NCBI GenBank assembly: GCA_919902985.1
Contig: CAKKSC010000022.1
Coordinates: forward strand, 3,436-67,435
Origin: Desulfuromonadales bacterium
GTDB taxonomy: Bacteria; Desulfobacterota; JAENJC01
Length of the DNA stretch: 64,000 nt
Reading direction: 5' to 3'
Position 1 is the stretch's first letter, and each line of letters opens with the position of its first letter. Shown here one piece after another: positions 2,863 through 57,653 of the stretch. The notes below the pieces were generated by a model. The model saw only the letters and a list, made by a program, of their open reading frames with translations. It made no database searches and was not told the DNA's origin. The translations under genes were made by a program, and so were the position numbers.

Positions 2863-4119
2863 TTAAAAGAACGAGGTAACCCGCAAATAATAGTCGCGCA
2901 CGTTGGGGAAATTCATTCCACTATAGGTGTCCTGTACCTCCAGCTTGACTATCAGTGGCATGGGGAGGTTCCCGCGCTGCCAGCGTTCAATACCACTCCA
3001 AGAAATAGAGGCACGCCACTGATCTGCACGGACGCTTGTGTTTTTCTCCAGGGATGCTGTATCCGTTCCCTGTCCTGATCCGTATCGGTCACTTCCCTTG
3101 TCGTAACGATGCCATGTGCCGGACAAACGCCAGTTGGCCAGACTTTTTCCCAGTTCAACGTCGTATTCAAAGTAATCACCCAGGTCGCGCGTCACCCTTT
3201 CTTTAGTTGCCGATGTGGCCAACAGCTCGCCCGGAGCCGGAACCCGGACAGTTCTATGGTCCTCCATCTGGACGTTATGTTCTACGAGAAGGCGGGCGTC
3301 AAAACCGGCACCCAGGCTGCGGAAGTACTCCACCCTTGCCCTCAGGTCGGTACTGCCGTCTCCAAGAGGGACATCGAGAAGGTTATCAGGGTCGTCCTCC
3401 CTGGCCAGACCAAAGCGGACGCCAAGGCCGAGGATTGCGCTGTCATGTTTGCCCTTATGAAATCGCCATAGAATCCCGACAGTAGGATCAGAGAAACCGG
3501 ACACGGTCGTTTCTTCGATCCTTTTATATCCATAGCCAAAGGCAGGGTCCGTCAGTATTTTCTGGAGGCCTTCTGTTCCCACTGGCTCTGTAGCCCCGGC
3601 GCCAACGGGAGCGAAAGGGAAGTTTGCGGCGCCTATCGGCACACCTGGATTAAACGCGGGATTGAAACCGATATTCCCGCCTGAGACTGAAAAATTTGCG
3701 GCTGCTCTGCTCCGCCCGAAGGGAAGTTGCAATCCGAGAGTCAGGTTATCAGTCAGACCATAACCGACGAGAAGTTCAGCAAAGAGATTTTCAACTTTTG
3801 AGTCAATAGACATATTGCCAAGGGACATGCCGGGGCCAAAAACCGTCAGAGAAGGAAAGATGCTGCTCCCCAGATCGAGCCCATCGTATTTTTTGTCGAG
3901 ATCAACAAGGTTGCCATCTTCATCATACCACTTATCATAACCATTGACGCGTACCTCAAGTCGCGCTGCCCATCGTCCCCTGGGAGCCATGACATCCAGC
4001 CCATGCGACGCGGACGATTGTAACTTTTCCTCAGCATAAGCAGTTGAAGATATTACCGTGGACATAAAAAAGCATGTAATCATCAAGCGTAGTGCTCTGC
4101 CATAAAAAGCAGTTTCCAT
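2863..4119 (-). CDS. outer-membrane beta-barrel protein (porin-like)
   Basis: N-terminal signal peptide; alternating amphipathic segments; C-terminal ...RVTSFF with terminal Phe, typical of OM beta-barrels. Confidence 0.55.
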   Translation of the reverse strand: METAFYGRALRLMITCFFMSTVISSTAYAEEKLQSSASHGLDVMAPRGRWAARLEVRVNGYDKWYDEDGNLVDLDKKYDGLDLGSSIFPSLTVFGPGMSLGNMSIDSKVENLFAELLVGYGLTDNLTLGLQLPFGRSRAAANFSVSGGNIGFNPAFNPGVPIGAANFPFAPVGAGATEPVGTEGLQKILTDPAFGYGYKRIEETTVSGFSDPTVGILWRFHKGKHDSAILGLGVRFGLAREDDPDNLLDVPLGDGSTDLRARVEYFRSLGAGFDARLLVEHNVQMEDHRTVRVPAPGELLATSATKERVTRDLGDYFEYDVELGKSLANWRLSGTWHRYDKGSDRYGSGQGTDTASLEKNTSVRADQWRASISWSGIERWQRGNLPMPLIVKLEVQDTYSGMNFPNVRDYYLRVTSFF

Positions 4120-4155: not shown

Positions 4156-6009
4156 CTACAGCAAAAGTTCCATTGTAATGCACGTTCCTTCACCCGGATT
4201 TGACCGGATATTCAGTCCTGCATTCATTTCCCTGCATCGTCGCTCCATATTTTTCAGGCCGTGGCCACCGCCTGTCCGCCGGGCTGAATCAAAACCCCGC
4301 CCATCATCCTTAATTTCAAAAGTTATCTTTTCTGCATCATCTCTGATGTTTACAGTAATTGTCTTTGCATCCCCATATTTGATAGTATTGGTCAACGCCT
4401 CCTGGAATATGCGAAGCAGGTTGAGACTGACAATATGGGGAACCATCCGCTCTTCATTGATCAGTCTCCTCGATACGCTGCACTCGAGACCGGCCATCAG
4501 GGCAACTTCTTTGGTCTTTTCTCCCAGGTGAAACGACAGCACTCCCATCGTTGCCATTTCACCTTCCATGGTGAGTATAAGATTTCTCAGCTCTGCCAGA
4601 CCTTCGTCCAGTACCCCTCTCAGTTGAGAAAGCCGCATTTCCGGTTCGGGCGCGCCTCTGAGGATAAGATCAACCAGCATGACGCCATTGGAAAAATTTC
4701 TGCCCAGGCCGTCATGAATTTCTCTGGAGATTCGCTCCCTTTCATCCGTCACAGCCTGTTTCGTTTCCATTTCCCGCATCTGCGCATGTGAGATCTCGAT
4801 CTCTGTTCTGGCTGCATTGACTCTATTTTCAAGCTCCTTGTTCAATGCCTCCGCTTCATCAAGGGCCGTAATAAAGCGCCGTATGAGATGCCAGGCCATG
4901 ATCATGAAGATAATCGGCGCTGAATAGTGATTAAGGTGAAAGTCGGTAAAGCCTGTAGATGAAATAAGCCGGGACTGTAAGATCCAGTCATGCACAGCAG
5001 TTAGAAGTACAATGGCGATGCCGAGGCCCATCACCCCCGACTCCCGGCTCCCCTCGACCTTCCAATGGCGAAGGAGTTGGAAGGCAGTATAAAAACCGAG
5101 AAGCATGGAGCCGCTATACCAGAAGACCGCCACACCGTTCATCTCGCCCAGTTCGGCAAAGGCCAGTGCAACCCCCCCTGAAACAGCAAAAAGGAGATAA
5201 ATCGATTCGAGTACTCTTCTTTTGCGCTTAAGAAAACGGTGCGAGAATATGGCAAGAAAAATGGTCCACCAGGTCAGGCTCCCATATGCTACCCAGTCCC
5301 AGGCCTTCGCCGATAGAGGGATGTCATGAATAAACAGGTTAAGGCTAAAAATAGACCACATCAGAACGGAAAGCGCAAACCACAGGTAGGAGGTATCGTT
5401 GCGTCTTCTGACCCAGAGAGCAAACATGAAGACGCCTACAGCAAGAGTCTCCGGGAAAAGCATGGCGCTGATATCGTTCTGAAACAGCTTTCTTAACTCG
5501 AATCGACGCTGAAGCAGCTTAATATCACCTAACTGGAGAGGTGATAGCTGGATATCATAAGGATAACCTTTAATGCGCACATCGATAATGTTCTCACCGG
5601 AACGCCACAGCGCCGGAGGAACGGTAAAAAGGAGCGGCCGGTTCCAGTTGCGCGCAACAGGCTCTTCAAATGAGCCGCCGTCGCCGATAAACTGCCCGTT
5701 AAGAAAAACTGCGGCATTCATACTGAGTTTTTGAAGATAGATCCCCCAGGTATTTGCTGGGCAGGCATCCAGTTGAAGATGAAGACGATACCAGCCGTTT
5801 TGCCCTTTTTTGTAAAGCCCCTTTTCCCAATGATGGGGGAGCGTCAGCGGACGCCATTGATCCGGTGGGAGGATAGGGGGAGTTGAAGCATTGGAAAGGA
5901 CAAATCCCGCCTCTGAAATATCACGGAGACCGCTGCTATCGGAAGTTTGGCCGCCAAAAGCCACAGATGGTGCAAGGAGTAGCAGGAAAAAAACGAGCAG
6001 TTTATTCAT
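4156..6009 (-). CDS. 7TMR-DISM sensor histidine kinase (HisKA_3/NarX-type)
   Basis: Signal peptide, periplasmic 7TMR-DISM-like domain, 7 TM helices, then HisKA_3 (ERERISREIHDGLG) and HATPase (GGGHGLKNM). Likely partner of the NarL-type RR at 2164. Confidence 0.8.
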   Translation of the reverse strand: MNKLLVFFLLLLAPSVAFGGQTSDSSGLRDISEAGFVLSNASTPPILPPDQWRPLTLPHHWEKGLYKKGQNGWYRLHLQLDACPANTWGIYLQKLSMNAAVFLNGQFIGDGGSFEEPVARNWNRPLLFTVPPALWRSGENIIDVRIKGYPYDIQLSPLQLGDIKLLQRRFELRKLFQNDISAMLFPETLAVGVFMFALWVRRRNDTSYLWFALSVLMWSIFSLNLFIHDIPLSAKAWDWVAYGSLTWWTIFLAIFSHRFLKRKRRVLESIYLLFAVSGGVALAFAELGEMNGVAVFWYSGSMLLGFYTAFQLLRHWKVEGSRESGVMGLGIAIVLLTAVHDWILQSRLISSTGFTDFHLNHYSAPIIFMIMAWHLIRRFITALDEAEALNKELENRVNAARTEIEISHAQMREMETKQAVTDERERISREIHDGLGRNFSNGVMLVDLILRGAPEPEMRLSQLRGVLDEGLAELRNLILTMEGEMATMGVLSFHLGEKTKEVALMAGLECSVSRRLINEERMVPHIVSLNLLRIFQEALTNTIKYGDAKTITVNIRDDAEKITFEIKDDGRGFDSARRTGGGHGLKNMERRCREMNAGLNIRSNPGEGTCITMELLL

Positions 6010-9068: not shown

Positions 9069-9557
9069 ATGGGAAAAAATCATAGAATTATCCCGATGTC
9101 AATACTTGCTCTTATCGCTTGTGCAACACTATTGTCAGCTCAAATGAACGGTCCCGGGCACGAACATGACAAGAAGATGGGCAAAACGGAAAAGACAGAG
9201 CAACACAAAGGTCCTGGCATGGAGATGGACACGCCACGCTGGAAGCAGACGCTCACAGAAGAACAGAAGATGAAGGTCGATAAGATGCATCTGGAATTAA
9301 AAAAGGCCATGAACATACTTGAGTCAAAGATGAATCTGAAAGAGGTTGAGATGAATAACTTTGCTACACAAGATAATGCCGACACTAAAGCCCTTCATCG
9401 TGCTATAGACGAGATAATGGAGCTCAAAAAGGAGATGATGATAAAGAAATATGACCATATAATCGAAATGCGCTCCATACTTACACCTGAACAGCGTGTA
9501 TCCTTTGATCTTGGGCTCAGCAGCGGCATGGGCGGGATGCATCAGGGACATCATTAA
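9069..9557 (+). CDS. periplasmic Spy/CpxP/ZraP-family protein (LTXXQ motifs)
   Basis: Signal peptide; two LTXXQ motifs (LTEEQ, LTPEQ); Gly/His-rich C-terminus; strong RBS. Confidence 0.7.
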   Translation: MGKNHRIIPMSILALIACATLLSAQMNGPGHEHDKKMGKTEKTEQHKGPGMEMDTPRWKQTLTEEQKMKVDKMHLELKKAMNILESKMNLKEVEMNNFATQDNADTKALHRAIDEIMELKKEMMIKKYDHIIEMRSILTPEQRVSFDLGLSSGMGGMHQGHH

Positions 9558-10435
9558 AATGAAGCAACTGAATTTGAGAGGGTGGAAAACTCGGACAGGG
9601 TCAGGGTTTCTCCCCTCCTTGAACCATCTATCCCTGCCCTCTTCAAGGCTGCCTCTACATCATTCTTTAGGAGGCTCAGGCCGGAACTTAGGGCATTCAG
9701 CAGAGTCTTTCTCCTCTGGCCAAAGGCGGCCTTTACCACCTTCAGCATAAGCTCCTCGTTATCTGTCTTTACAGACGGCTCTGCAAGCATTTCAAGCCTT
9801 ACAACGGCAGAATCAACCTTTGGAGGCGGTGTGAATGCGTGAGGTGAAACCTTGAAAAGGAGAGAGGGCACTGTGTAAAGCTGGGCAAAGACGGAGAGGA
9901 TGCCGTAGTCCTTTGTGCATGGTTTTGCTACAAGCCTGTCGGCAACCTCTTTCTGGAACATAAGGGTCATGGACGAGATGTATTCCTTGCCCTCAAGCAG
10001 CCTGAAGAGAACTGGAGTGGATATGTTGTAGGGAAGATTTGCCACAACCTTGATCTTCCTGCCGACCCTTTTATACAACCCGCCTATGTCAAATTTAAGG
10101 GCATCGGCATTTATAATCTCAACATTATTTTCTGAGAACTTCTCTGAAAGGATCGAACAAAGCTCCCGGTCCAGTTCAACGGCCATGACCCTCTCTGCTT
10201 TTTGAGAAAGCAGGGATGTCATATCTCCAAAGCCCGGCCCTATCTCAAGGACAATGTCATCCTTCGAGACTCCGGCCCCGTCAATGATCTTGCGGATTAT
10301 ATTCTGGTCTCTGAGGAAGTGCTGACCAAAACGCTTTTTAGAAACAAAGGATGAGGGATGAGGGATAAGGGATGAATCAAAACTTTTATTTACTTCAGCC
10401 CTCATCCTTCCGCCCTCGGCCTTGTCTTTTTTCAT
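9554..10435 (-). CDS. rsmA: 16S rRNA (adenine1518/1519-N6)-dimethyltransferase RsmA/KsgA with N-terminal insertion
   Basis: KKRFGQHFL start motif and LEIGPGFGDMT SAM motif. About 25 extra residues after MKKDKAEG are encoded by a palindromic DNA element. Confidence 0.85.
   Translation of the reverse strand: MKKDKAEGGRMRAEVNKSFDSSLIPHPSSFVSKKRFGQHFLRDQNIIRKIIDGAGVSKDDIVLEIGPGFGDMTSLLSQKAERVMAVELDRELCSILSEKFSENNVEIINADALKFDIGGLYKRVGRKIKVVANLPYNISTPVLFRLLEGKEYISSMTLMFQKEVADRLVAKPCTKDYGILSVFAQLYTVPSLLFKVSPHAFTPPPKVDSAVVRLEMLAEPSVKTDNEELMLKVVKAAFGQRRKTLLNALSSGLSLLKNDVEAALKRAGIDGSRRGETLTLSEFSTLSNSVASF
10349..10407. repeat. palindromic element embedded in-frame at the 5' end of rsmA
   Basis: GGATGAGGGATGAGGGATAAGGGATGAA ... 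TTCAGCCCTCATCC: arms GGATGAGGG / CCCTCATCC around an AT-rich loop. Confidence 0.5.
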
Positions 10436-10457
10436 CCTTCCTCCTTCATCCCTTTCA

Positions 10458-13004: not shown

Positions 13005-15566
13005 CTACAATAAATGTGTCCTTGTCTTCACGATCCTCAGCAGCCTTGTTTCTTCATCCCCAAGCCCGAAAAGGGCATGCATAAGCTCGCCCGGCTTTAT
13101 GCCTCCTTCCTTCCCGGTCTTTATGGTCATCTCTATTTTATTGTCCACGCTATCAAGCCTTTCAATCAGGGGCCTTATGTCATACTCCTTCCCTGTCCGT
13201 TCTTTTTTAAACAGAAACATCTCTTTTTCCATAAAAGACCGAAGTATTGCCCCATCCTCCAGTGGGCCGGGGACAGTCCCCATTCTACGACTACGCTCCG
13301 CTTCGTCCGTAAATAGGGACAGTCCCCTGTGTATCTCGTAATCCGCCTTTGTAACCGCAGACGTAACGGCAGGGGATGAGATTGGGACATCAATGGCCGT
13401 TTCTATTCTGATCCCTTCAGGAAGTTGCAGGTTAAGTCTGTCCCTTGCCTCGCCAGACGCCAGATATCCCTCTATCTCAATGTCGGCAAACTCCTCCAGA
13501 GATTCCATTCCAAGTGATATTGGAGGAGAGAAGGTGATCTTTGGCGCAGGGTGAAAACCGGCGGAATAACGAACAGGGATACCTGCCCTTCTGACTGCCC
13601 TTGCAAAGAGGCTCGACAGTTCCAGGTGCCCGAGGAACCTGGCGTCTCCCATCTTAGAGTATGTGAGGCGAATCCGGCGGACAGCGAGGGTTTGCGCTGG
13701 TTTAAGAAGCGGTCTCGGACGCCTCCTGACCTCACCTTCTCCAACCCTGTTTTTTATCGTCTGAAAATCGCACAGTCCGCACCCCGTGCAGTCGTCATAT
13801 CGGCAGTCTGGTGTGAATACTTCGTCAAGGCCCTTCTTCGCCTCAAGCTTAAGGTATTTCTTTGAAATGCCTGAATCTATATGGTCCCAGGGCAGGGTTT
13901 CCTCCATCCCCCTTTTCCTGAGGTAAAAGAGAGGGTCTATGCCGCAATCTTCAAATGCCTTCTGCCAGAGGTCAAACCTGAACACCTCCCCCCATCCGTC
14001 AAACCTGCACCCAAGCTCAAAGGCCATGGCTATACTCTTTGACAGCCTCCTGTCACCTCTGGCAAAGACCCCCTCCAGCTCACTCATGGCAGGTTCGTGC
14101 CATTTGAAGGTCACCCTGTTTTTCTTCAGCTCCATCCTGAGGAGGTCGTGCCTCCTCTTTGTCTCCTTAAGGCCTATCTGCTCTTCCCACTGGAAAGGGG
14201 TATGGGGCTTAGGCACGAAGGTTGCGACCGACGCGGTGACGTTTTTCCCTCCGGCCTTTCTGGCAATTTTTAGGGTCTTGCCGGAAAGTTCGGCAATAGC
14301 CATTAAATCTTCATCCGTCTCTGTCGGGAGGCCTATCATGAAATAGAGTTTTATGGTCTCCCATCCCGCCTCAAATACCTGCTGGACTGAGTTCAGGAGG
14401 TCAGCCTCCGTTATCCCCTTGTTTATCACATCCCTGAGCCTCTCACTACCGGCCTCAGGGGCCATGGTGAAACCGGTCTTCCTGACCCGACTTATCTCCG
14501 ATATCAGTTCAGGGCTCATAGTGTCAACACGCATGGAAGGCAGCGAGATGGCAATTTTTTCATCTGAATATCTGTCCATCAGATTGGCAAGCAGATCACT
14601 TATACAGGAATAGTCTCCAGTGGAAAGGGAGAGGAGGGTCAGGTCCTCATATCCGGTGGAACGTAACGCCTTCTCTGCTATCTCCTGAAGCTTTTCCGGA
14701 GTCCTCTCCCTCGTAGGTCTGTATATCATCCCGGCCTGGCAGAACCTGCACCCTCTGGTGCATCCGCGCGTTACCTCCAGTGTCACCCTGTCATGGACTA
14801 TAGCCATGAAAGGGACTATCGGCCTGTCTGGATATGGAACCGTGTTTAGGTCTGCGACTGTCCTCTTTTCGACCTTTGGATAGTCATCATATTGTGGCCT
14901 TATCTCCTTCATCGTCCCATCATTGTTATAAGAGACGTCAAAGAAAGACGGCACATAGATGCCCTTTATGCCTGTCAAGGCTCGAAGGAGGCCCAACTTC
15001 CCACCTTCGCATCCTCTCAACTTCCAACTCCTGTATGCTTCCGCTATCTCAGGGAATGCCTCTTCCCCGTCTCCTATCAGCGCAGCATCCAGAAAATCGG
15101 CTACAGGCTCCGGGTTGAAGACACATGGGCCCCCTGCAATAATCAGAGGGAAGGACTCATCCCTCTCTGATGCCCATATAGGGATACCGGCCAGGTCCAT
15201 CATATTCAGCATGTTGGTATGAGAGAGGTCGTACTGGATTGAAAAACCTATTATGTCGAACTCCAGAAGATGGAGGTTTGATTCCAGGGAAGAAAGTGGA
15301 AGGGACCTTTCTCTTAGAATTTTCTCCATATCGATCCAGGGGGCATATACCCTCTCTGCCGCGACTTCCGGGATTCTGTTCAATATGTGATAGAGGATAT
15401 GGAGTCCCTGATGCGACATCCCAACTTCATATACATCAGGAAATGCCAGGGCGATCTTGACGTCTACCTTATCGAGATCTTTGTGGATTGAGTTGACCTC
15501 TGTCCCAAGGTAGCGGCTCGGCTTGCTGACGAGAGGCAGGAGGTCTTTAAAAGACGGGTTGTCCAT
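13005..15566 (-). CDS. B12-binding radical SAM protein fused to DUF2344-like C-terminal domain
   Basis: CTRGCRFC (Cx3Cx2C) cluster motif; N-terminal B12-binding-like region; 853 aa. Confidence 0.85.
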   Translation of the reverse strand: MDNPSFKDLLPLVSKPSRYLGTEVNSIHKDLDKVDVKIALAFPDVYEVGMSHQGLHILYHILNRIPEVAAERVYAPWIDMEKILRERSLPLSSLESNLHLLEFDIIGFSIQYDLSHTNMLNMMDLAGIPIWASERDESFPLIIAGGPCVFNPEPVADFLDAALIGDGEEAFPEIAEAYRSWKLRGCEGGKLGLLRALTGIKGIYVPSFFDVSYNNDGTMKEIRPQYDDYPKVEKRTVADLNTVPYPDRPIVPFMAIVHDRVTLEVTRGCTRGCRFCQAGMIYRPTRERTPEKLQEIAEKALRSTGYEDLTLLSLSTGDYSCISDLLANLMDRYSDEKIAISLPSMRVDTMSPELISEISRVRKTGFTMAPEAGSERLRDVINKGITEADLLNSVQQVFEAGWETIKLYFMIGLPTETDEDLMAIAELSGKTLKIARKAGGKNVTASVATFVPKPHTPFQWEEQIGLKETKRRHDLLRMELKKNRVTFKWHEPAMSELEGVFARGDRRLSKSIAMAFELGCRFDGWGEVFRFDLWQKAFEDCGIDPLFYLRKRGMEETLPWDHIDSGISKKYLKLEAKKGLDEVFTPDCRYDDCTGCGLCDFQTIKNRVGEGEVRRRPRPLLKPAQTLAVRRIRLTYSKMGDARFLGHLELSSLFARAVRRAGIPVRYSAGFHPAPKITFSPPISLGMESLEEFADIEIEGYLASGEARDRLNLQLPEGIRIETAIDVPISSPAVTSAVTKADYEIHRGLSLFTDEAERSRRMGTVPGPLEDGAILRSFMEKEMFLFKKERTGKEYDIRPLIERLDSVDNKIEMTIKTGKEGGIKPGELMHALFGLGDEETRLLRIVKTRTHLL

Positions 15567-36268: not shown

Positions 36269-37132
36269 ATGAAGATAAGAAAGGCTGTATTTCCGGCTGC
36301 CGGGCTTGGTACAAGATTCCTTCCCGTAACCAAGGCCATTCCAAAGGAGATGCTCCCCCTGGTTGACACACCGCTGATTCAATACTGCGTGGAGGAGGCC
36401 ATCGCTTCTGGTATAGAGGATGTAATAATAATCACAGGCCGCGGCAAGACGGCCATAGAAGACCATTTCGACACATCAAAAGAACTCGAGGTGTTGTTGG
36501 AGGAAAAGGGGAAGACAGACCTTTTGAAGATGGTCAGGGACATATCAAACCTTGTCAGGTTCTCATACACAAGACAAAAAGAAGCGTTGGGACTTGGGCA
36601 CGCAATCCTTTGCGCTAAAGACCTGGTGGGAGAAGAACCCTTTGCGGTATTTCTGGGAGATGATATCATAGATTCCAAGGTCCCTGCCATGAAACAGATG
36701 ACTGAGGTGTATAAAAAATACAGACACTCCGTCCTGGCAGTACAAAGGGTTCCAAGGGAGAATATATCAAGTTATGGGGTGATTAAAGGGACGGCAGCAG
36801 GTAACCACCTATTTGAAGTAACCGATCTGGTTGAAAAACCGAGGCCCGAAGATGCCCCATCTGACTTGGCGGTCATAGGGAGATATATCCTTACCCCGGA
36901 TGTCTTTGAGTATCTGGAAAATACCAGACCTGGGAAAAACGGGGAGATTCAACTGACCGATGCCCTAAAGGCAATGGCTGGCAGGCATCCCATATATGCC
37001 CTTGAGTTTGAGGGCGACAGGTACGATGCAGGGGACAAGCTTGGTTTTTTAAAGGCCACTGTCTCCCTTGCCCTGAAGAGGGACGATTTAAGAGATGAGT
37101 TTGTCGAATTTCTCAAGGGGTTAAAGCTTTAG
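36269..37132 (+). CDS. galU: UTP--glucose-1-phosphate uridylyltransferase
   Basis: KAVFPAAGLGTRFLPVTKAIPKEMLP N-terminal signature. Confidence 0.85.
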   Translation: MKIRKAVFPAAGLGTRFLPVTKAIPKEMLPLVDTPLIQYCVEEAIASGIEDVIIITGRGKTAIEDHFDTSKELEVLLEEKGKTDLLKMVRDISNLVRFSYTRQKEALGLGHAILCAKDLVGEEPFAVFLGDDIIDSKVPAMKQMTEVYKKYRHSVLAVQRVPRENISSYGVIKGTAAGNHLFEVTDLVEKPRPEDAPSDLAVIGRYILTPDVFEYLENTRPGKNGEIQLTDALKAMAGRHPIYALEFEGDRYDAGDKLGFLKATVSLALKRDDLRDEFVEFLKGLKL

Positions 37133-37190
37133 TGGTCAGGGGTCAGTGATCAGTGGTCAGTTACTGACAACCGGCCACTGACCACCTTTT
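37133..37190 (+). terminator. palindromic repeat (family B) acting as galU terminator
   Basis: TGGTCAGGGGTCAGTGATCAGTGGTCAGTTACTGACAACCGGCCACTGACCACC followed by TTTT; nested stems GTGGTCAG / CTGACCAC. Confidence 0.5.
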
Positions 37191-44010: not shown

Positions 44011-45079
44011 AGGCATCCCACATCCCCCGTCCTTACGGGACATCGGCGAATTCGGCCTGATTAAGAGGATTGCACGGAAGGCAAAGAGAAAAGATACATC
44101 CGTCCTTATTGGGATCGGTGATGACGCGGCGGTGCTTACCCCCCCCATCTCCCCCTTATTAAGGGGGGGCGAAGGGGGGGTGGCGCCCCTACTGGTAACA
44201 ACAGATTCGCTCATAGAGGATGTGCATTTCAGACGGGATTATCAGCCGGAAGCCATAGGATGGAAGGCCCTGGCAGTAAATATAAGCGATATTGCCGCAA
44301 TGGGGGGAGTCCCAGAGCATTACCTCCTTTCGCTTGGGGTCCCGGAAGGGATATCAATCGAGTATATAGACCGTTTTGTTAGGGGTATGACTGAAGCAGC
44401 TGAGGAATATGGGCTCTCCATGATCGGGGGGGACACCACCTCATCTCCTGACAAGTTTTATATATCCGTTACCGTATTGGGGAAGGGAAGCGAGACCCTC
44501 TTACTAAGGAAAGGTGCAAGGGCTGGAGATGTTATATTTGTCACAGGGACGTTAGGGGATTCGGCGCTGGGGCTTAAGATATTAGAAGATAAGAAGGTAA
44601 GCATTTGGGAAGATGAACGTTTCTCAACCGCTCAACCTCTCAACCGCTCAACCTCTCAACTCATAAACCGCCATCTCAGGCCCACTCCAAGGGTCAAGGA
44701 AGGCATACAACTGGCAAAGACCGGCATGGTTACATCTATGATAGATATAAGCGACGGACTCCTGTGTGACCTTGGGCATATATGCGAAGAGAGCAGGGTG
44801 GGGGCCAGGGTACGGATAGACGAGCTTCCACTGTCACAGGGATTCAATACCTTCTCGGCCAAATATGGCGGAATAGAGCTTGCCTTGAGCGGTGGTGAGG
44901 ATTACGAACTTTTGTTTACAGTGCGAAGCAAAGATGTTAAAAGCTTCATGAGTATGACCGAAGGGACAAAATATACGCCCATAGGCGAGGTCATGAAGGA
45001 CAGGGTAATTGAGGTAATTGGAGCCGATGGCAGCAGGTATCTTCCCAAAAGTAGCGGATACGAGCACTTCAGAAGGTAA
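44000..45079 (+). CDS. thiL: thiamine-monophosphate kinase with two internal repeat insertions
   Basis: GIGDDAAVL...LVTTDSLIEDVHF and GGDTTSSPD ThiL/AIR-synthase-like motifs; 359 aa (longer than usual). Confidence 0.8.
   Translation: MRAEGIPHPPSLRDIGEFGLIKRIARKAKRKDTSVLIGIGDDAAVLTPPISPLLRGGEGGVAPLLVTTDSLIEDVHFRRDYQPEAIGWKALAVNISDIAAMGGVPEHYLLSLGVPEGISIEYIDRFVRGMTEAAEEYGLSMIGGDTTSSPDKFYISVTVLGKGSETLLLRKGARAGDVIFVTGTLGDSALGLKILEDKKVSIWEDERFSTAQPLNRSTSQLINRHLRPTPRVKEGIQLAKTGMVTSMIDISDGLLCDLGHICEESRVGARVRIDELPLSQGFNTFSAKYGGIELALSGGEDYELLFTVRSKDVKSFMSMTEGTKYTPIGEVMKDRVIEVIGADGSRYLPKSSGYEHFRR
44139..44180 (+). repeat. GC-rich palindromic mini-element in-frame in thiL
   Basis: CCCCCCCCATCTCCCCCTTATTAAGGGGGGGCGAAGGGGGGG encoding PPISPLLRGGEGGV. 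Confidence 0.6.
44623..44661 (+). repeat. tandem repeat (CTCAACCGCTCAACCT)x2.4 inside thiL
   Basis: ctcaaccgctcaacctctcaaccgctcaacctctcaact encoding QPLNRSTSQLINR. Confidence 0.6.
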
Positions 45080-47285: not shown

Positions 47286-47717
47286 ATGCAGCAGGTAATG
47301 ACATTTCAGATTGGGAACGAGTTTTACGGCATTGATGTCGCAAAGGTGAGTGAGATTGTGGAGTTTACTCAACTGACGCCTTTACCCAAGGCCCCTGTAT
47401 GGATAAACGGGATATTGAACCATCATGGACGGATAGCAACCGTATTGAACCTCTCCACTTTTTTCGACTTCATTCCTACCAGTGAGAACAATTTAAGGAG
47501 GATTGCTGTAATAGACAATTCGTTAATGGATATTGGGGTCCTCCTGGAGGGGCATTTAGAAGTTATCTCTGAATGGGAAGCCAAGACAGAGATATCGGCT
47601 GATCCAGAATTTTTGAAAAGCAAATACGTCGCCAACGTACTTGTTTCCAGGGGTAGAGTCGTCAATCTGCTTGATACGGACAGACTCATAACTGACCTGG
47701 ATGGATATTTTGTGTAA
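47286..47717 (+). CDS. cheW: chemotaxis coupling protein CheW
   Basis: CheW-like domain (FQIGNEFYGIDVAKVSEIV...GRIATVLNL); ATG after AGGGGA. Confidence 0.85.
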   Translation: MQQVMTFQIGNEFYGIDVAKVSEIVEFTQLTPLPKAPVWINGILNHHGRIATVLNLSTFFDFIPTSENNLRRIAVIDNSLMDIGVLLEGHLEVISEWEAKTEISADPEFLKSKYVANVLVSRGRVVNLLDTDRLITDLDGYFV

Positions 47718-47761: not shown

Positions 47762-47875
47762 AACCCACCCTCACTTCAATCCTCTACCCACGTGGCATAA
47801 ATCATTGAGGGAGAGGAAACCTCTCTTATTCCCTCCCCTTCACAAGGGGAGGGTTAGGGTGAGGATGGGGTAAAT
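47762..47875. repeat. intergenic cluster of GC-rich hairpins related to the in-frame palindromic elements
   Basis: aacccaccctcacttcaatcctc ... GAGAGG-aaac-CCTCTC ... CCCTCCCCTT-caca-AGGGGAGGG ... gggttagggtgagg. Confidence 0.4.
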
Positions 47876-47907: not shown

Positions 47908-48279
47908 ATGTCTTATAAGGTACTTGTAGTTGATGACGCAGCCTTTATGAGGAACATGATCAAGGATGTCTTTGGCTCAATGCCCGGGTTTACAGTGATA
48001 GGGGAGGCTTCCAACGGCATAGAGGCGATAGAGAAATACAAGGAACTGCGGCCTGACCTGGTCACCATGGATATCGTGATGCCGCTCAAGAGCGGAATAG
48101 AAGCGGCCAGAGAGATAACCAACGCGGACCGTGAGGCCAGGATAATAATGTGCAGCGCCCTGGGGCAGGAAAGTCTTGTTATGGAGGCCATTGACGCCGG
48201 AGCCAGTGACTTTATAGTAAAGCCCTTCAAGGCAGAGAAGGTACAGGAAGTTGTAAGCAGGGTTCTTAGGATTAAATAA
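47908..48279 (+). CDS. cheY: chemotaxis response regulator CheY
   Basis: Single REC domain (VLVVDDAAFMR...VTMDIVMPLKSG...KP). Confidence 0.85.
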   Translation: MSYKVLVVDDAAFMRNMIKDVFGSMPGFTVIGEASNGIEAIEKYKELRPDLVTMDIVMPLKSGIEAAREITNADREARIIMCSALGQESLVMEAIDAGASDFIVKPFKAEKVQEVVSRVLRIK

Positions 48280-48303: not shown

Positions 48304-50265
48304 ATGGATATGTCCAAATATAAAAGCATGTTTTTAACTGAGGCCAGGGAACATCTTGGTAATATGAACCAGGTTGTGCTTGTTCTGGAAAAAGATCCTG
48401 GAGACAAGGGGAATATAGACTCACTTTTCAGATCGGCCCATTCAGTTAAAGGCATGGCTGCATCCATGGGTTATGATGGTATAGCTGAGCTTAGCCATAA
48501 AATGGAAGATATGATGGACAAGTTTCGCAAGGGGGAGATGCCTATAACGCCGGAGGCGACCGACATCCTTCTGGAAGGAGTTGACGCCCTTGGGCAGATG
48601 ATAGATGCGGTGGAGCAGGACAGGATATCTGATGTGGATGTCTCCAGGACAATAGAACGGATAAAGGGGTACGGGGCACAAAAGTCAGTGGTCAGTCTGA
48701 ACCCTGCTACTGAAGTCGAGCCACCGGCCACTGACTACCGGCCACTGACCACCGGGTTCAATATCTCCATAGAAATCTCCCAGGACTCTCCGGCGCCTTC
48801 TGTCAGGGCCGTCCTGATACTTAGAAAACTAAAAGAGCTTGGAGAGGTCATATCGACAAACCCTTCCGAGGCGGACCTGAAAGGCAGGAAGTTGTCAGGG
48901 CCGTTGTCTGTTAAGTTTGTATCTGACACGGCTCAGGAGAAGATTGAAGAGGTTGTCAGGGGGATGGGAGAGGTGTCTTCCCTAAAGGTCGAGCCTCTGA
49001 AAGATGAGGTTCAGGCTCCTGATTTTAGAACTCCAATCGCCGCTCCCCAAAAAGAATCGGTGAAAAGTGAAGCAGAGGAACCGAAGGGATCGAGACCCGA
49101 AATCCCTTCAATAGGGCCTTTGCAGCAGACCGTTAAGGTCAATACCGCCCTTCTCGACTATTTTGTGAATGCCATTGGCGAACTAATCATAAATAAGTCC
49201 AGGCTCCATGATATCTCACGGGGGATACCTTCCAAGGAGTTAAGTGATGGGCTAAACCATCTTGACAGGCTTGTAAGAGACCTGCAAAACCAGGTGATGA
49301 GCGTCAGGATGATGCCTATGGAAAGCTTAATGGAGAGGTTCCCAAGGATTGTCCGGGACCTGGCCAGGAAAGAGGGGAAAGAAGTCACTCTTAACATGGA
49401 GGGGCAGGACATAGAACTGGACCGTTCCATTATAGAAGGACTGGGAAATCCTCTGATACATATAATCAGGAATGCTGTGGACCACGGCATTGAACTGCCT
49501 GACGACAGAAGGGCCGCCGGCAAACCTCTCCCTGCCAAGATTTTAATAAAGGCATCCAGGGAAAAGGACCAGGTTTTCATAGAGATATCCGATGACGGAA
49601 AGGGAATGGACCCTGAAAGGCTTAAGGAAGCAGCAATAAACAAGGGGCTGATAACCCCTGAACAGGCAGCAGGGATGAGTAAAAAGGAAGCGCTCCTCCT
49701 TACATGTATTCCCGGCTTCAGCACGGCCAAGGTCGTTTCCGACATATCAGGAAGAGGCGTCGGGATGGACGCCGTGAAGTCGGCAATAGAGCCTATCGGC
49801 GGCAGTATTGATATAGATTCCAGGCCGGGGGCAGGGACAAGGATTACACTTAAGCTCCCTCTGACAGTCGCCATAATCCAGTCCCTTTTGATTGAAGCCG
49901 CCCAGGAGATATATGCCATTCCGATAAGCAGGGTGCTGAAGACTATGGAGATAGACAGGGATACTGTGAAGACCAGTCAGAAGCAGAGTCTGATAGATTT
50001 TGACGGCTTTCTTATACCTCTCCTCAGCATTAGGAAGATATTTACACTGCCGCCCTTGGCAGGGCAGGCCAAATTTATACCGGTTGTAGTCACTGAGGTT
50101 AAAGGTAAGATCGTAGGACTAGTGGTAGACAGGCTGGTTGGACAACAGGAAACCTTTATAAGGCCGCTTGGAAGGCCCCTCAACAAGATAGGCGGCCTGT
50201 CCGGAACCACTGTCCTCGGTAACGGCCGGACCATTTTTTTATTGGATGTGGGGAATATAGTATGA
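48304..50265 (+). CDS. cheA: chemotaxis histidine kinase CheA
   Basis: P1 Hpt (SAHSVKG), dimerisation domain, HATPase and C-terminal CheW-like domain; a repeat-derived linker insertion after P1. Confidence 0.9.
   Translation: MDMSKYKSMFLTEAREHLGNMNQVVLVLEKDPGDKGNIDSLFRSAHSVKGMAASMGYDGIAELSHKMEDMMDKFRKGEMPITPEATDILLEGVDALGQMIDAVEQDRISDVDVSRTIERIKGYGAQKSVVSLNPATEVEPPATDYRPLTTGFNISIEISQDSPAPSVRAVLILRKLKELGEVISTNPSEADLKGRKLSGPLSVKFVSDTAQEKIEEVVRGMGEVSSLKVEPLKDEVQAPDFRTPIAAPQKESVKSEAEEPKGSRPEIPSIGPLQQTVKVNTALLDYFVNAIGELIINKSRLHDISRGIPSKELSDGLNHLDRLVRDLQNQVMSVRMMPMESLMERFPRIVRDLARKEGKEVTLNMEGQDIELDRSIIEGLGNPLIHIIRNAVDHGIELPDDRRAAGKPLPAKILIKASREKDQVFIEISDDGKGMDPERLKEAAINKGLITPEQAAGMSKKEALLLTCIPGFSTAKVVSDISGRGVGMDAVKSAIEPIGGSIDIDSRPGAGTRITLKLPLTVAIIQSLLIEAAQEIYAIPISRVLKTMEIDRDTVKTSQKQSLIDFDGFLIPLLSIRKIFTLPPLAGQAKFIPVVVTEVKGKIVGLVVDRLVGQQETFIRPLGRPLNKIGGLSGTTVLGNGRTIFLLDVGNIV
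48684..48753 (+). repeat. palindromic repeat (family B) in-frame in the cheA P1-P2 linker
   Basis: GTCAGTGGTCAGT...CCGGCCACTGACTACCGGCCACTGACCACC; shares CCGGCCACTGACCACC and the GTGGTCAGT arm with the galU terminator repeat at 37133-37190. Confidence 0.5.
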
Positions 50266-52148: not shown

Positions 52149-53375
52149 ATGATAGCATACTTTGATTGTTTTTCAGGTATCAGCGGTGATATGATTGTGG
52201 GGGCCTTCCTGGATGCCGGAGTTCCGTTTGAGTGGCTGAAGGATGAGCTGGAGAAACTCTCACTGAAAGGATATAAGCTGGGGGTAGAGGACGTTAAACG
52301 GGGAGGAATAGGAGGGAAGAAATTCCATGTAGAGACCCCCCCCCTCAATCCCCTCCTTAGTAAGGGGGGGGTAGTTGAGAGAAGACTTGGAGACATAACG
52401 GGGATAATCGAGAAAAGCACCCTCTCGAAAGATGTTAAAGAGCTGAGCATTCTGGTATTTCAAAGACTTGCCGGGGCAGAGGCAAGGGTACACAGGATCG
52501 GGGTTGACGATATACACTTCCATGAGGTAGGCGGAGTAGACTCCATTATTGATATTGTGGCAGCATCCCTGTCCCTCTCTTTTCTGAAAATAAAAGAGGT
52601 TTATGCATCAGAGATTCCAGTGTCTCACGGCATAATATTGAGTAGTCACGGGAGGTTGCCTCTGCCCGCGCCTGCCACGATGGAGCTGCTGAAGGATGTC
52701 CCTGTTTGTCAAAGTTCAACAACAGGCGAGCTTGTGACACCAACCGGTGCAGCCTTTCTTTCCGTAGTATGCAAAGGGTTTGGTCCCATCAGACCTATGA
52801 GGCTTAAAGGTATTGGATATGGGGCTGGAGAAAGGGATAATGAAGGTCTTCCGAACCTGCTGAGGGTAATGATTGGAGAGCCACCCCCCCTCAATCCCCC
52901 CCTTAATAAGGGGGGGGCGAAAGGGGGGGTAGAGGTTGACTCCGTCATGGTCATAGAGTCCAACATAGACGACATGAGCCCTGAGATTTACGGTTTTGTC
53001 ATGGAGCGGCTCTTTGATGAGGGGGCGCTGGATGTTTCTCTGATACCTGTCTACATGAAAAAAGGGAGGCCTGGAACCATTGTCCAGGTCTTGTGTGAGG
53101 CTGGGATGGAAAAGTCGCTTGGAGAGTTGCTCCTTAAGGAGACCTCGACAATAGGTGTCAGGTTTTACAGGACGGACAGATTGAAGCTGCAGCGGGAAAC
53201 CGTTGAGGTAAAGACCAGGTTTGGCACAGTAAGAGCGAAGGTGGCAAGGTCTCCATGGGGGAACAAGGCGCGGCCTGAGTACGAAGACTGCAGGAAGGTG
53301 GCTATGGATATGGGAGCTCCCCTTCTGGATGTCTATACAGAAGCTGTTAAGGAGTTTAAGGAAAATGACGAATAG
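52149..53375 (+). CDS. larC: nickel-pincer cofactor biosynthesis protein LarC (DUF111) carrying two in-frame palindromic insertions
   Basis: N-terminus MIAYFDCFSGISGDMIVGAFLDAGV matches the LarC family. Confidence 0.8.
   Translation: MIAYFDCFSGISGDMIVGAFLDAGVPFEWLKDELEKLSLKGYKLGVEDVKRGGIGGKKFHVETPPLNPLLSKGGVVERRLGDITGIIEKSTLSKDVKELSILVFQRLAGAEARVHRIGVDDIHFHEVGGVDSIIDIVAASLSLSFLKIKEVYASEIPVSHGIILSSHGRLPLPAPATMELLKDVPVCQSSTTGELVTPTGAAFLSVVCKGFGPIRPMRLKGIGYGAGERDNEGLPNLLRVMIGEPPPLNPPLNKGGAKGGVEVDSVMVIESNIDDMSPEIYGFVMERLFDEGALDVSLIPVYMKKGRPGTIVQVLCEAGMEKSLGELLLKETSTIGVRFYRTDRLKLQRETVEVKTRFGTVRAKVARSPWGNKARPEYEDCRKVAMDMGAPLLDVYTEAVKEFKENDE
52336..52371 (+). repeat. GC-rich palindromic mini-element in-frame in larC (copy 1)
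   Basis: CCCCCCCCCTCAATCCCCTCCTTAGTAAGGGGGGGG encoding PPLNPLLSKGG. Confidence 0.6.
52884..52929 (+). repeat. GC-rich palindromic mini-element in-frame in larC (copy 2)
   Basis: CCCCCCCTCAATCCCCCCCTTAATAAGGGGGGGGCGAAGGGGGGG encoding PPPLNPPLNKGGAKGG. Confidence 0.6.
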
Positions 53376-54800: not shown

Positions 54801-57653
54801 TTGAATTATAAAGAAACAATAAACCTTCCCTTAACAGAGTTCCCCATGAGGGCGAACCTTAACCAGAAGGAACCTGAACTCCTTAAGGAATGGGATGAGG
54901 CAGGACTTTATCAAAAGATCAGGGACAAGTCAAAGGGAAGGCCGAGATACATCCTCCATGACGGGCCACCTTACGCCAACGGCCATATACACATAGGGCA
55001 CTCCATAAACAAAATTTTGAAAGATATTGTTGTAAAGTCGCGGCAGATGTCCGGCTTCGACGCCCCTTATATCCCGGGATGGGACTGCCACGGCTTGCCT
55101 ATAGAACTTCAGGTGGATAGGGACCTTGGCTCAAAGAAGCAGGGAATGAGCAAGCTTGATATCCGCAGGCACTGCCGTGAGTATGCCGGAAAGTTCATAG
55201 ATATCCAGAGGGACGAGTTTAAGAGACTCGGCATCCTCGGAGACTGGGGAAGGCCCTATCTAACGATGGACTTCGCCTATGAAGCCGCTACAGCAAAGGA
55301 GCTTGGAAAGTTCTTTGAAAAGGGCGCAGTTTACAAGGGCCGCAAGCCTGTCCACTGGTGCTCATCCTGCCAGACGGCCCTGGCAGAGGCGGAGGTGGAG
55401 TACAATGAAAAGACATCGCCGTCGATTTACGTGAAGTTTAAGGTAGGGGCGTATGGCAATACGCCCTTACAAAAAATAGTTGGTGACCGGCATGCCTCCA
55501 TCGTTATCTGGACAACCACCCCCTGGACCATACCTGCCAATATGGCTATATCGGTACACCCTGATTATGACTATTCGATTGTTGAAACTCCCCCCATCCT
55601 CCTTCTTGCTAAAGAAGGGGAGCCGGAGGCGGGGGAGTTCTTGATCCTTGCCACAGAACTCGTCCCTTCCTGCATGGAGAAATGGGGCATTTCAGATTAC
55701 AAGACCATAGCGAAGGTCAAGGGCAATGAACTCAAGGGTATAGTCTGCAGGCATCCTTTTGTCGAGCGCTACTCTGTTGTCGTCACAGGCACCCATGTTG
55801 CCCTCGATGCCGGGACCGGCTGTGTTCACACTGCCCCGGGTCATGGAGAGGACGATTACCGCATAGGACTCGAATATGGTCTTGAGATATATACCCCGGT
55901 TGACAAGGCAGGGAGATTTACTGATGACGTCCCGTTCTTTGCCGGTGAGCAGGTATTCAAGGCCAACAAGGGTGTCATAGAAAAGCTTAATGAGGTTGGG
56001 GCTCTGATAAAGGAGGAGTCCATTCAGCACTCCTATCCTCACTGCTGGAGATGCAAGGGGCCGATCATCTTCAGGGCCACGGAGCAGTGGTTCATTTCCA
56101 TGGAAAGGAACGACCTCAGGAAGAAGGCCATTGATGCAATAAACAAAGAAATCCGCTGGATACCACACTGGGGGAAGGACCGTATTCTTGGAATGATTAC
56201 CAACAGGCCTGACTGGTGTATATCGAGGCAGAGGACATGGGGTGTGCCAATTACTGTCTTTTACTGCAAGGGTTGCGGCGAGATCCTTTCTGATAAGGCT
56301 GTATTCGACCACGTGGTCTCACTCTTCAAAAATGGCGGAGCTGATGTCTGGTTTGATAAGGAGGTAAGCGAGCTACTGCCTCCCGGTTCTAAATGCAAGA
56401 AGTGCGAAGGAAGCGAATTCGAAAAGGAAATGGACATACTTGACGTATGGTTCGACTCAGGGGTGAGCCATGCAGCTGTATTGGAGTCGAGGGAAGAACT
56501 CTCCTCCCCTGCCGACCTTTATTTAGAGGGGAGCGACCAGCACAGGGGATGGTTCCATTCCTCCCTCCTTGCCTCTATGGGGACCAGGGACAGGGCCCCT
56601 TACAAGGCAGTCCTGACCCACGGTTTCGTGGTGGACGGCGAGGGGAAGAAGATGTCCAAATCTTCAGGAAATGTCGTCGCCCCGCAGGAGATAATAAAAA
56701 AATATGGTGCAGAGGTCTTGAGGCTCTGGGTTGCGGCAGAGGACTACAGGGACGACATCCGTATTTCAGAAGGAATAGTCGTCCAGCTCTCCGATGCATA
56801 TAAGAAAATAAGAAACACCTTCCGTTATTTATTGAGTAACATTTATGACTTTGACCCTTCAAAACAGCTGGTGCAGTACAAAGATATGCTTGAGATAGAC
56901 AGGTGGGCGTTGCTTCGGCTCTATACCCTTTCAAACAGGGTTGAAAAGGCTTATAACGATTTCGAGTTCCATCAGATATACCATTCGACCCACGCCTTCT
57001 GCGTAAACGATCTTTCATCCTTTTACTTCGATATCCTGAAGGACAGACTTTATACAGCCAGAAAAGATTCTGTCGAGAGGCGTTCGGCCCAGACGGCACT
57101 CTTCCACATTCTCAATTCAATGGTAAGATTGATGGCCCCCATATTCTCCTTCACATGCGAGGAAGTATGGAAATTTATGCCAACAACTCCCCCCAACCCC
57201 CTCTTTAGTAAAGAGGGGGTGCCGAAGGCGGGGGAGTTTAAAAGAGAAGAGTCCGTCCATCTTGTCTCTTTCCTTAAATCTAACGAGGAATGGAAGGATG
57301 ATGAGCTTCTGAAAAGCTGGGAGATGCTTCGATCAGTCAGGGAAGAGGTTCTAAAGGTCCTTGAGGTGGCCAGAAGAGAGAAGATGATAGGCAACTCCCT
57401 TGAAGCGGAGGTAACTCTTTACGCTCCGGATGACCTCTACAAGTTGCTCAGGGTCTACGAAGGTCAACTGAAATACATATTCATCGTATCCAGTGTCATC
57501 CTCTACAGTGAAGATAGAGGGAAGCCTGTCGAGGTCACGGTAGCACAGGCATCCGGGCAGAAGTGCGAGAGGTGCTGGAACTACGACATGACGGTTGGTA
57601 TTAACGGTGAACATCCGACTGTGTGTGACAGGTGCGTGAGGGCGGTGAGTTAA
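54801..57653 (+). CDS. ileS: isoleucine--tRNA ligase (type 1) carrying two in-frame palindromic insertions
   Basis: HIGH ([11 protein letters not shown]) and KMSKS motifs, C-terminal zinc finger CERCWNY...CDRC; TTG start. Confidence 0.95.
55588..55637 (+). repeat. GC-rich palindromic mini-element in-frame in ileS (copy 1)
   Basis: CTCCCCCCATCCTCCTTCTTGCTAAAGAAGGGGAGCCGGAGGCGGGGGAG encoding [17 protein letters not shown]. Confidence 0.6.
57187..57236 (+). repeat. GC-rich palindromic mini-element in-frame in ileS (copy 2)
   Basis: CTCCCCCCAACCCCCTCTTTAGTAAAGAGGGGGTGCCGAAGGCGGGGGAG encoding [17 protein letters not shown]; near-identical architecture to copy 1. Confidence 0.6.

Follow-up and report, generated by a model that had tools for sequence, protein, structure and literature searches.

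Palindromic selfish repeats that lie in frame within unrelated housekeeping genes have been described as RPEs (Ogata et al. 2000, as cited in PMC10969869 and PMC3733652). In these accounts, RPEs are read through as extra peptide segments compatible with the fold and the function of the host protein (PMC10969869, PMC3733652), measure approximately 100-150 bp (approximately 150 bp in PMC10969869), are confined to Rickettsia and carry a CGTC tag (PMC3733652). REPs, which are short GC-rich imperfect palindromes, are likewise found in some instances inside open reading frames (ORFs) of known proteins (Di Nocera et al. 2013, PMC3733652). For Geobacter metallireducens, multicopy sequences located 'even within genes', among them four-fold heptanucleotide repeats, have been reported, and the account given there reads them as sites for regulatory RNA or for protein binding (Aklujkar et al. 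2009, PMC2700814). Here we describe a short palindromic repeat, referred to as the A element, which occurs twice in frame within ileS, the gene of isoleucyl-tRNA synthetase (IleRS), on a 64,000-nucleotide stretch of contig CAKKSC010000022.1 (hereafter the window). The host belongs to an uncultured, free-living lineage of Thermodesulfobacteriota/'Deltaproteobacteria' of the sulfate-reducer type.

The A element belongs to a repeat family, is polymorphic in its insertion among relatives, is nearly identical across unrelated loci, keeps the reading frames open and lies in loops that are modelled as coil. We consider it likely that it is a short, non-autonomous, selfish DNA repeat, kept only where it is stop-free and situated in a permissive loop. 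Of the two ileS copies, one (copy 1) is old and the other (copy 2) recent.

The pattern CTCCCCC-N(20-50)-GGGGGAG has exactly two matches in the window, both of them + strand (55588-55637 and 57187-57236); after shuffling of the window the mean was 0.07 matches, and two matches were reached in 1 of 100 shuffles. A repeat search widens the pair to 54 nt each, with an identity of 45/54 (83%). The preliminary description of this DNA had announced two near-identical 50-nt copies inside ileS: the two in-frame copies are real, but 'near-identical' is too strong a term for this level of identity. The host ORF is a complete copy of an essential gene, both copies are in frame within it, and each encodes 18 aa; translation of the ORF gives the peptides that had been reported. 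The three features are as follows, with bit scores from a covariance model built from copies of the ileS subtype:

54801..57653, + strand: ileS ORF, 950 aa, intact, with HIGH and KMSKS motifs; E = 9e-299 to the IleRS of PDB 8c9e.
55586..55639, + strand: copy 1, A element of the ileS subtype; outer stem 55586-55594/55631-55639, inner hairpin 55601-55607/55612-55618, mini-hairpin GCC-GGA-GGC at 55622-55630; residues 263-280; 71.5 bits.
57185..57238, + strand: copy 2, A element of the ileS subtype; outer stem 57185-57193/57230-57238, inner 11-bp hairpin 57196-57206/57210-57220, mini-hairpin GCC-GAA-GGC at 57221-57229; residues 796-813; 87.2 bits, the top match.

A elements measure 44-54 nt, and the ileS subtype has exactly 54 nt, which corresponds to 18 codons. 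In the single-strand fold of this subtype, a 9-bp outer stem (AACTCCCCC / GGGGGAGTT) is combined with an inner hairpin of 7-11 bp around TTnnnTAAA, with TTA-N-TAA at its centre, and both ileS copies have an extra small GCC-GRA-GGC hairpin on the 3' side. The outer arms noticed earlier are present, although at 9 bp they are slightly longer than had been described. The DNA fold energy is -18.3 kcal/mol for copy 1 (z = -4.3) and -22.3 kcal/mol for copy 2 (z = -6.3) relative to shuffled sequences. The 9-bp terminal inverted repeat is perfect and is kept across nine copies of the subtype. With regard to the family as a whole, the termini are either AACTCCCCC / GGGGGAGTT or ACCCCCCC / GGGGGGGT; because the element is a C-run...G-run palindrome, either strand starts with a C-run and ends with a G-run. 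When the six frames of the 54-mer were read by eye, four were found to be open, encoding peptides that are Pro-rich and then Gly-rich, and two met a central TAG/TAA. When the whole window was compared with Rfam 15, no family reached its gathering score; within 55400-57400, a threshold of E <= 1 likewise gave no match. A tRNA scan found nothing.

The covariance model recovers exactly five A copies in the window (two in ileS, two in larC and one in thiL) and further copies in relatives, with E from 1e-8 to 1e-23. The copies in thiL and larC are related to those in ileS but distinct from them, in agreement with the preliminary description, which had set the ileS copies apart as a subtype. The canonical subtype has the same nested layout minus the mini-hairpin and is more C/G-rich than the ileS subtype. 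The three additional copies are:

44137..44182, + strand: A element of the canonical subtype in thiL, ACCCCCCCC-ATCT-CCCCCTTATTAAGGGGG-GGCGAA-GGGGGGGT, encoding TPPISPLLRGGEGGV; 39.1 bits.
52334..52373, + strand: truncated A element at larC site 1, with the right inner arm and the 3' loop missing, encoding TPPLNPLLSKGGV; 20.6 bits.
52882..52931, + strand: A element of the canonical subtype at larC site 2, encoding PPPLNPPLNKGGAKGGV; 47.4 bits.

We read the truncation at larC site 1 as slippage between its two G-runs.

When the window's IleRS is aligned with solved IleRS structures (8c9e, 1ffy), both segments appear as alignment gaps, of 13 and 18 residues. Counted on the 1ffy alignment, the insertion points lie after S. 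aureus residues 257 and 774. The mapping onto the IleS structure that the preliminary description had proposed places site 1 early in the CP1/editing domain (position 257) and site 2 after the last helix of the anticodon-binding domain (position 774). Conservation of the two segments in distant IleS orthologs, which the preliminary description had named as evidence to the contrary, was not observed: of 116 IleRS homologs, 99 have 5 aa at site 1 and 110 have 2-4 aa at site 2, and a few unrelated lineages among these homologs carry other insertions at both sites. Judged from these alignments, both segments are lineage-specific insertions rather than ancestral sequence. In the AlphaFold2 model of the enzyme (mean pLDDT 88, pTM 0.82), insert 1 forms the coil tip of a beta-hairpin whose strands are 257-263 and 279-284 (block-mean pLDDT 63-70), and insert 2 is also modelled as coil, with a pLDDT below 50 for residues 798-812.

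A third hypervariable loop of IleS was observed at approximately 55440-55480 (residues ~214-226). It comprises 12 residues in the window and reads QWSGVSGQGSVVK, GQRPVVSGRLK, GQGSGVRGQLK or VLAPYVSRLTSNV in relatives; these variants look like translated heptamer repeats of the ACTGACC type. A C/G nested hairpin in the contig L019 (10653-10698) sits at about the same position of the protein.

The distribution of the copies was followed in relatives' contigs (L081-L086) that are syntenic with the window (thiL ... cheA-cheC-cheD-larB-larC-GGDEF-ileS-lspA-lgt); the order larC-GGDEF-ileS-lspA-lgt is kept in relatives, and ileS orthologs at 80-92% identity were obtained by protein search. The ileS gene of L085 is 89.8% identical to that of the window at the nucleotide level and carries the same element at site 1 (46/54) together with 18 nt inside it: in this ortholog of copy 1 (9210-9281), the 18-nt insertion (CACCCATCCGGGTATAAA) lies within the 3' arm of the inner stem. 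In L081 (84% nt identity), a 27-nt internal deletion has reduced site 1 to the arms ACTCCCC...GCCGGAGGCGGGGGAGTT. L084 (77%) has a near-perfect canonical A copy at site 1, L082 and L086 have (CTCCCAA)x3, and L083 has repeats of the GACCAC type. Site 2 is empty in L085, L081 and L082, and is occupied in L083 and L084 by a different 61-nt hairpin, designated type B. L086 is 90.5% identical to L082 at the nucleotide level, yet it carries a canonical A copy in the site 2 loop that is empty in L082.

A similar turnover is observed in larC. Site 1 is filled by the A element only in the window and is empty in L081, L082, L083 and L085. Site 2 of the window is occupied by the canonical subtype. Its counterpart in L085 has the ileS subtype, that in L082 a third A subtype translated in a different frame, and those in L081, L083 and L084 repeats unrelated to A. 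Alignments obtained with blastn between the window and its relatives end precisely at A elements.

The comparison of ileS in close relatives, which had been suggested as a check, thus separates the two copies: copy 2 is absent from L085, L081 and L082, and copy 1 is present in L085 and survives as a remnant in L081. Copy 1 is an old, decaying insertion, since the window, L085 and L081 represent three lineages with orthologous copies of it. It has nine differences from the subtype consensus and is 85% identical to its L085 ortholog, against 89.8% for the ileS gene, which indicates that the copy diverges faster than the gene. Copy 2, which is recent, is the exact consensus of nine copies of the subtype. 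As it is absent from L085 and most relatives, identical to the consensus and 52-53/54 identical to copies elsewhere, it is not derived from copy 1. The two ileS copies differ in age and arose independently. This bears on the argument, made in the preliminary description, that two copies of one subtype in a single essential gene reveal an active, spreading element. Mobility and recent activity are well supported by the insertion polymorphism and by near-identical copies in unrelated loci, but not by that argument, given that the two copies are 83% alike, differ in age and show no local spread. The presence of two copies in ileS is better explained by two unusually permissive loops than by local spread, as other repeats occupy the same loops in other lineages.

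Close matches to copy 2 were found outside ileS. A metagenome scan with GCCGRAGGCGGGGGAGTT, a pattern that is too generic in GC-rich DNA, yielded at least four true elements among the 120 stretches listed; since only the matches listed were counted, the copy number of the A element is a lower bound. In L112, a 54-mer that agrees with copy 2 at 53/54 positions is read in frame in the gene of an RND-adaptor-like protein, close to the C-terminal end. L166 and L180 have a 54-mer (52/54) in the nucleotide-binding region of a CopA-type ATPase gene (copA), and L168 has one (53/54) in mutL, in reverse orientation; the RND-adaptor, CopA and MutL identities come from reading of the translations rather than from scoring against a family library. 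A fourth 54-mer (53/54) is carried by the Mu-like phage L208, one copy being in frame in a phrog_2113 gene. This phage sequence (IMGVR_UViG_3300032024_000274, 13.8 kb) contains MuA-like and MuB-like transposition genes and Gam, according to a viral scan. It has consensus-like 54-mers at 2-55 and 3841-3894, an A variant at approximately 5309-5370 and two hairpins of a further family designated C, which amounts to a repeat density of about 1 per 3 kb, above that of the host window.

A copies are therefore in frame in ileS (two), larC (two), thiL, the RND-adaptor gene, copA, mutL and the phage gene. Counted by hand, approximately 14 independent intragenic copies are all stop-free and keep the frame, in three frame/orientation combinations; the chance of this is (2/3)^14, or about 0.003, based on the two of six readings that contain TAG/TAA. 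About 14 of 15 independent copies are intragenic. The remaining copy (L112 2575-2621) is intergenic, 12 nt downstream of a stop codon, which demonstrates that the family is not confined to genes. As approximately 90% of the window is coding, the intragenic share is no evidence of a preference for coding sequence and shows only that the element is not excluded from genes.

Similar C-run/G-run nested hairpins were also noticed in distant lineages, namely in a Nitrospirae metagenome-assembled genome (MAG; L014 4910-4954) and, inside ileS, in a Deltaproteobacteria MAG (L019 10653-10698). These are the only two clear cases in approximately 1.4 Mb of distant ileS neighbourhoods. Given their presence in these distant MAGs, the design may be widespread. 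A separate observation concerns the protein P0127 from an ENA contig of 323,689 nt: its ileS gene is otherwise 100% identical to that of the window but is split by a frameshift inside the equivalent of copy 2 (57185-57238). Miscounting of a homopolymer in long-read assembly is the likely source of the frameshift; were it genuine, an essential gene would be disrupted at the C-run.

The A element shares its genomes and loops with other repeats, which in the window are represented by the following features:

13269..13328, - strand: type-B element, 60 nt, in frame in a radical-SAM/DUF2344 gene (ORF 13005-15566); GGGGACTGTCCC-TATTTACGGACGAAGCGGAGCGTAGTCGTAGAATG-GGGACTGTCCCC.
47819-47871, intergenic (the flanking ORFs end at 47717 and start at 47908): member of the third nested-hairpin family, C; CATCCCCACCCCAA-CCCTCCCCTT-GAA-GGGGAGGG-TTAGGGTGAGGATGGGG.
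44622-44671 (thiL), 48716-48755 (cheA-like ORF 48304-50265), 37131-37186, 10349-10451 and 14992-15029: tandem 7-8-nt repeats, mostly intragenic.

In type B, a spacer separates two palindromes, GGGAC(T/A)GTCCCC, that are inverted relative to each other and carry GTAG/GTAA tags; the plan is GGGGACTGTCCC-AGATTTAC...GTAG-AATC-GGGACTGTCCCC. To judge from this arrangement, it looks like a genuine GTAG-tagged REP doublet (a REPIN as defined in PMC3733652). In four different genes, an A-type hairpin is located exactly between the two type-B arms (L112 2691-2744, L166 4469-4522, L168 1307-1360 and larC site 1 of L084, 7420-7510), giving composites of the form GGGGACTG...[A]...GTAGAATCGGGACTGTCCCCG, at least two of which formed independently. 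This arrangement points either to a targeting preference for hairpins already in place or to joint movement of whole composites. Family C was also found at L084 5087-5170, L112 4105-4148, and L208 3007-3087 and 9297-9346, and it occurs, together with many tandem heptamers and octamers, in the same genomes and loops as A. The tandem units are CTCAACCG (x4.8), CCACCGGCCACTGA (x2.5), AGTGGTC (x4.4), GGATGAG (x3.9), TTCATCC (x3) and CCCAACTT (x4.9), and in relatives (CTCCCAA)x3 and GACCAC(C/T) heptamers are present in loops that A occupies in the window. The window also contains a 92-nt inverted repeat (18792-18883/61313-61404) with 73% complementarity between arms 42 kb apart, one beside mnmE and the other inside a desulfoferrodoxin-like ORF; it may be due to chance or be a gene fragment.

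A mechanism that would account for the selfish-repeat reading can be outlined. New copies would land anywhere, and persistence in a gene would require a copy that is stop-free and preserves the frame, together with a location in a surface loop able to accommodate some 15 additional flexible residues. The C-run...G-run palindrome lends itself to being read through, because it gives Pro-Pro...Leu-x-Lys...Gly-Gly without a stop in most frames and on either strand, and purifying selection would leave only stop-free, frame-keeping copies in tolerant loops. In ileS, the permissive loops would be the beta-hairpin tip early in the CP1/editing domain and the linker that follows the final helix of the anticodon-binding domain; the inserts would be translated as disordered loops and add nothing to the enzyme. 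Copy 1 would have entered before the lineages of the window, L085 and L081 split and would be decaying by point changes, internal deletion and internal insertion. The arrival of copy 2 would postdate the divergence from L085, and its source would be a master sequence that is active at present and would also have inserted into the efflux-adaptor, copA, mutL and Mu-like phage genes. Mobilisation would occur in trans, by an enzyme acting on the folded single strand, as suggested by the lack of a target-site duplication, the occurrence of both orientations and the insertions inside other hairpin repeats. Decay would proceed by slippage between homopolymer runs, as at larC site 1 and in L081.

Several points weigh against this account. 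A Pfam scan of 30 ORFs (window positions 714 to 44010) found no transposase, RAYT, IS200/IS605 or recombinase gene, and the flanks of eight or more copies showed no target-site duplication, target motif or shared direct repeat. In four filled/empty comparisons, the A element replaces approximately 6-15 nt of the loop instead of being a clean insertion; the net change is +24 (window 52334-52373 vs L085 5924-5939), +48 (57185-57238 vs ileS site 2 of L085) and +33 (L086 3275-3324 vs ileS site 2 of L082). Such replacement is equally compatible with repair or templated copying and with transposition followed by trimming of the loop. The patchy loop occupants could in part stem from homologous recombination between strains rather than from repeated insertion. 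About 11 of the 14 coding copies share one orientation and frame, which could result from a strand bias or from selection acting on the peptide that the element encodes, and that the inserts are translated is something we infer from the open frames. A microhomology join was considered for ileS site 2, where GCGGGG in the empty site of L085 resembles the 3' end of the element; the junctions do not fit a simple join.

Since the element replaces 6-15 nt of loop, a route through break repair or gene conversion, in which sequences are copied between loci with no transposition, stays a rival. Fragile hairpins would be cut (e.g. by SbcCD-type nucleases), and short-homology templated repair from a family member would replace the occupant of the loop and trim its neighbours. 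The different subtypes at larC site 2 of the window, L085 and L082, the missing target-site duplication and the exactly central position of A elements in the type-B hairpins of L112, L166, L168 and L084 are all in keeping with this route. We nevertheless regard it as unlikely: entire elements were gained by empty loops without homology to the repeat (larC site 1, and ileS site 2 of both the window and L086), full-length consensus-identical 54-mers with sharp borders are found in unrelated genes and in a phage, and, with loops evolving fast, the apparent replacement may represent later trimming. It is far less probable that the inserts are adaptive lineage-specific IleRS modules, serving tRNA contact, partner binding or regulation and kept by selection at the protein level. 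Across three lineages that differ by at least 10-16% at the nucleotide level, copy 1 has indeed persisted, there is a strong bias of frame and orientation (~11/14), and insert 2 lies near the C-terminal tRNA-binding region. However, the 18-codon stretch recurs in proteins other than IleRS (an efflux adaptor, CopA, MutL and one phage protein), the inserts are absent, truncated or swapped for unrelated sequence in close relatives, copy 1 diverges faster than ileS (85% vs 89.8%), and both inserts are modelled as low-confidence coil.

The size of about 50 nt and the strong hairpin also recall elements that ribosomes skip. Precedents for such bypassing are the 50-nt gap of phage T4 gene 60 and the 'byp' elements of Magnusiomyces mitochondria. 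The notion that the hairpin is untranslated, being either removed from the mRNA or bypassed by the ribosome, nevertheless deserves very little credence. Every intragenic copy is stop-free and in frame, in three frame/orientation combinations, which would be needless if the element were skipped; the borders of the ileS copies show neither an in-frame stop nor matched take-off and landing codons; decayed, poorly folding copies (L081, larC site 1) are still in frame; and Rfam gave no match. Readings as an intein, an intron or a bypass element were dropped in view of the size of the element, the open frame of every copy and the lack of an in-frame stop. An artefact of assembly or binning, by which low-complexity GC hairpins would have been mis-assembled into ileS, can be virtually dismissed. 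C/G homopolymer runs are error-prone, and one 323-kb contig (P0127) has a frameshift within copy 2; yet the identical protein or segment is present in several independent assemblies (ENA, NCBI, JGI, Logan), copy 1 has orthologs in L085 and L081, and the ileS ORF is intact.

The reading of the A element as a selfish repeat can be extended, tentatively and with more doubt than confidence, to that of a 'protein-loop parasite'. Under this extension, an orientation-agnostic 18-codon Pro...Gly hairpin would have coding sequence as its main niche, prefer other hairpins (REP doublets and earlier copies) as targets, and travel between hosts on Mu-like phages, moved by a hairpin-recognising enzyme or by a repair route that replaces target bases instead of duplicating them. 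If so, a few permissive loops of essential enzymes (IleRS, LarC, MutL and CopA) would be hypervariable cassettes whose occupant differs between sister species.

The ileS gene offers a dated pair within one gene, consisting of an old, decaying copy and a new copy identical to the consensus, while the same loops are re-occupied independently in sister species and copies are also carried by a transposable phage. This constitutes a natural experiment on the tolerance of proteins to loop insertions and on the movement of short hairpins without target duplication. In practical terms, A-type elements inflate apparent protein divergence and are associated with frameshift errors at C/G homopolymers in long-read assemblies, and ortholog alignments and indel-based phylogenetic markers in MAGs may be misled by them.

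With regard to known systems, the A element is like RPEs in being an in-frame palindromic repeat in unrelated genes. It differs from them in its length (44-54 nt), its nested C-run/G-run hairpin, the absence of a CGTC tag and of any sequence similarity to RPEs, and its occurrence in a lineage of Thermodesulfobacteriota/'Deltaproteobacteria' and on a Mu-like phage. It shares with REPs and REPINs the character of a short, GC-rich, multicopy imperfect palindrome without target-site duplication. However, no A copy has GTAG or CGTC at either end (it is type B that has GTAG/GTAA heads), A is one nested hairpin and not a doublet of two palindromic REPs, A copies are mostly intragenic whereas REPs are overwhelmingly extragenic, and the 30 window ORFs scanned include no RAYT gene. 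MITEs (Correia/NEMIS, RUP, ERIC, Coxiella QMITE1) resemble it as non-autonomous elements with terminal inverted repeats, strain insertion polymorphism and occasional in-frame fusions; they are nonetheless 70-400 bp long, with terminal inverted repeats of 15-30 bp and a target-site duplication, as opposed to 54 nt, a 9-bp inverted repeat and no duplication seen for A. No IS whose ends match those of A occurs in the sequence analysed.

The heptanucleotide repeats reported for G. metallireducens, a member of a related group, resemble the tandem heptamers and octamers in A-element loops, whereas the account in PMC2700814, as far as it was available, describes neither a C-run/G-run nested hairpin nor an in-frame turnover of loops. 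G. metallireducens is a precedent for the accompanying tandem repeats and not for the A element. The coding palindromes of Nematomorpha mitochondria are also hairpin inverted repeats within coding sequence of which both arms are translated, but they are mitochondrial, perfect and up to 284 bp long, and do not form a dispersed family of short, near-identical copies (PMC6649704). Translational bypass elements differ in that both ileS copies are open, with no in-frame stop. No description of the 18-codon C-run/G-run element was found in the literature searched, which is no proof of novelty. To judge from its sequence, the A element falls outside the RPE, REP/REPIN, MITE and Rfam families, yet behaves like RPEs and intragenic REPs. 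Up to now, selfish DNA lying in frame within essential genes has been a curiosity of Rickettsia, alongside scattered intragenic REPs; to these, the A element adds a much smaller and structurally distinct family in a free-living, uncultured lineage.

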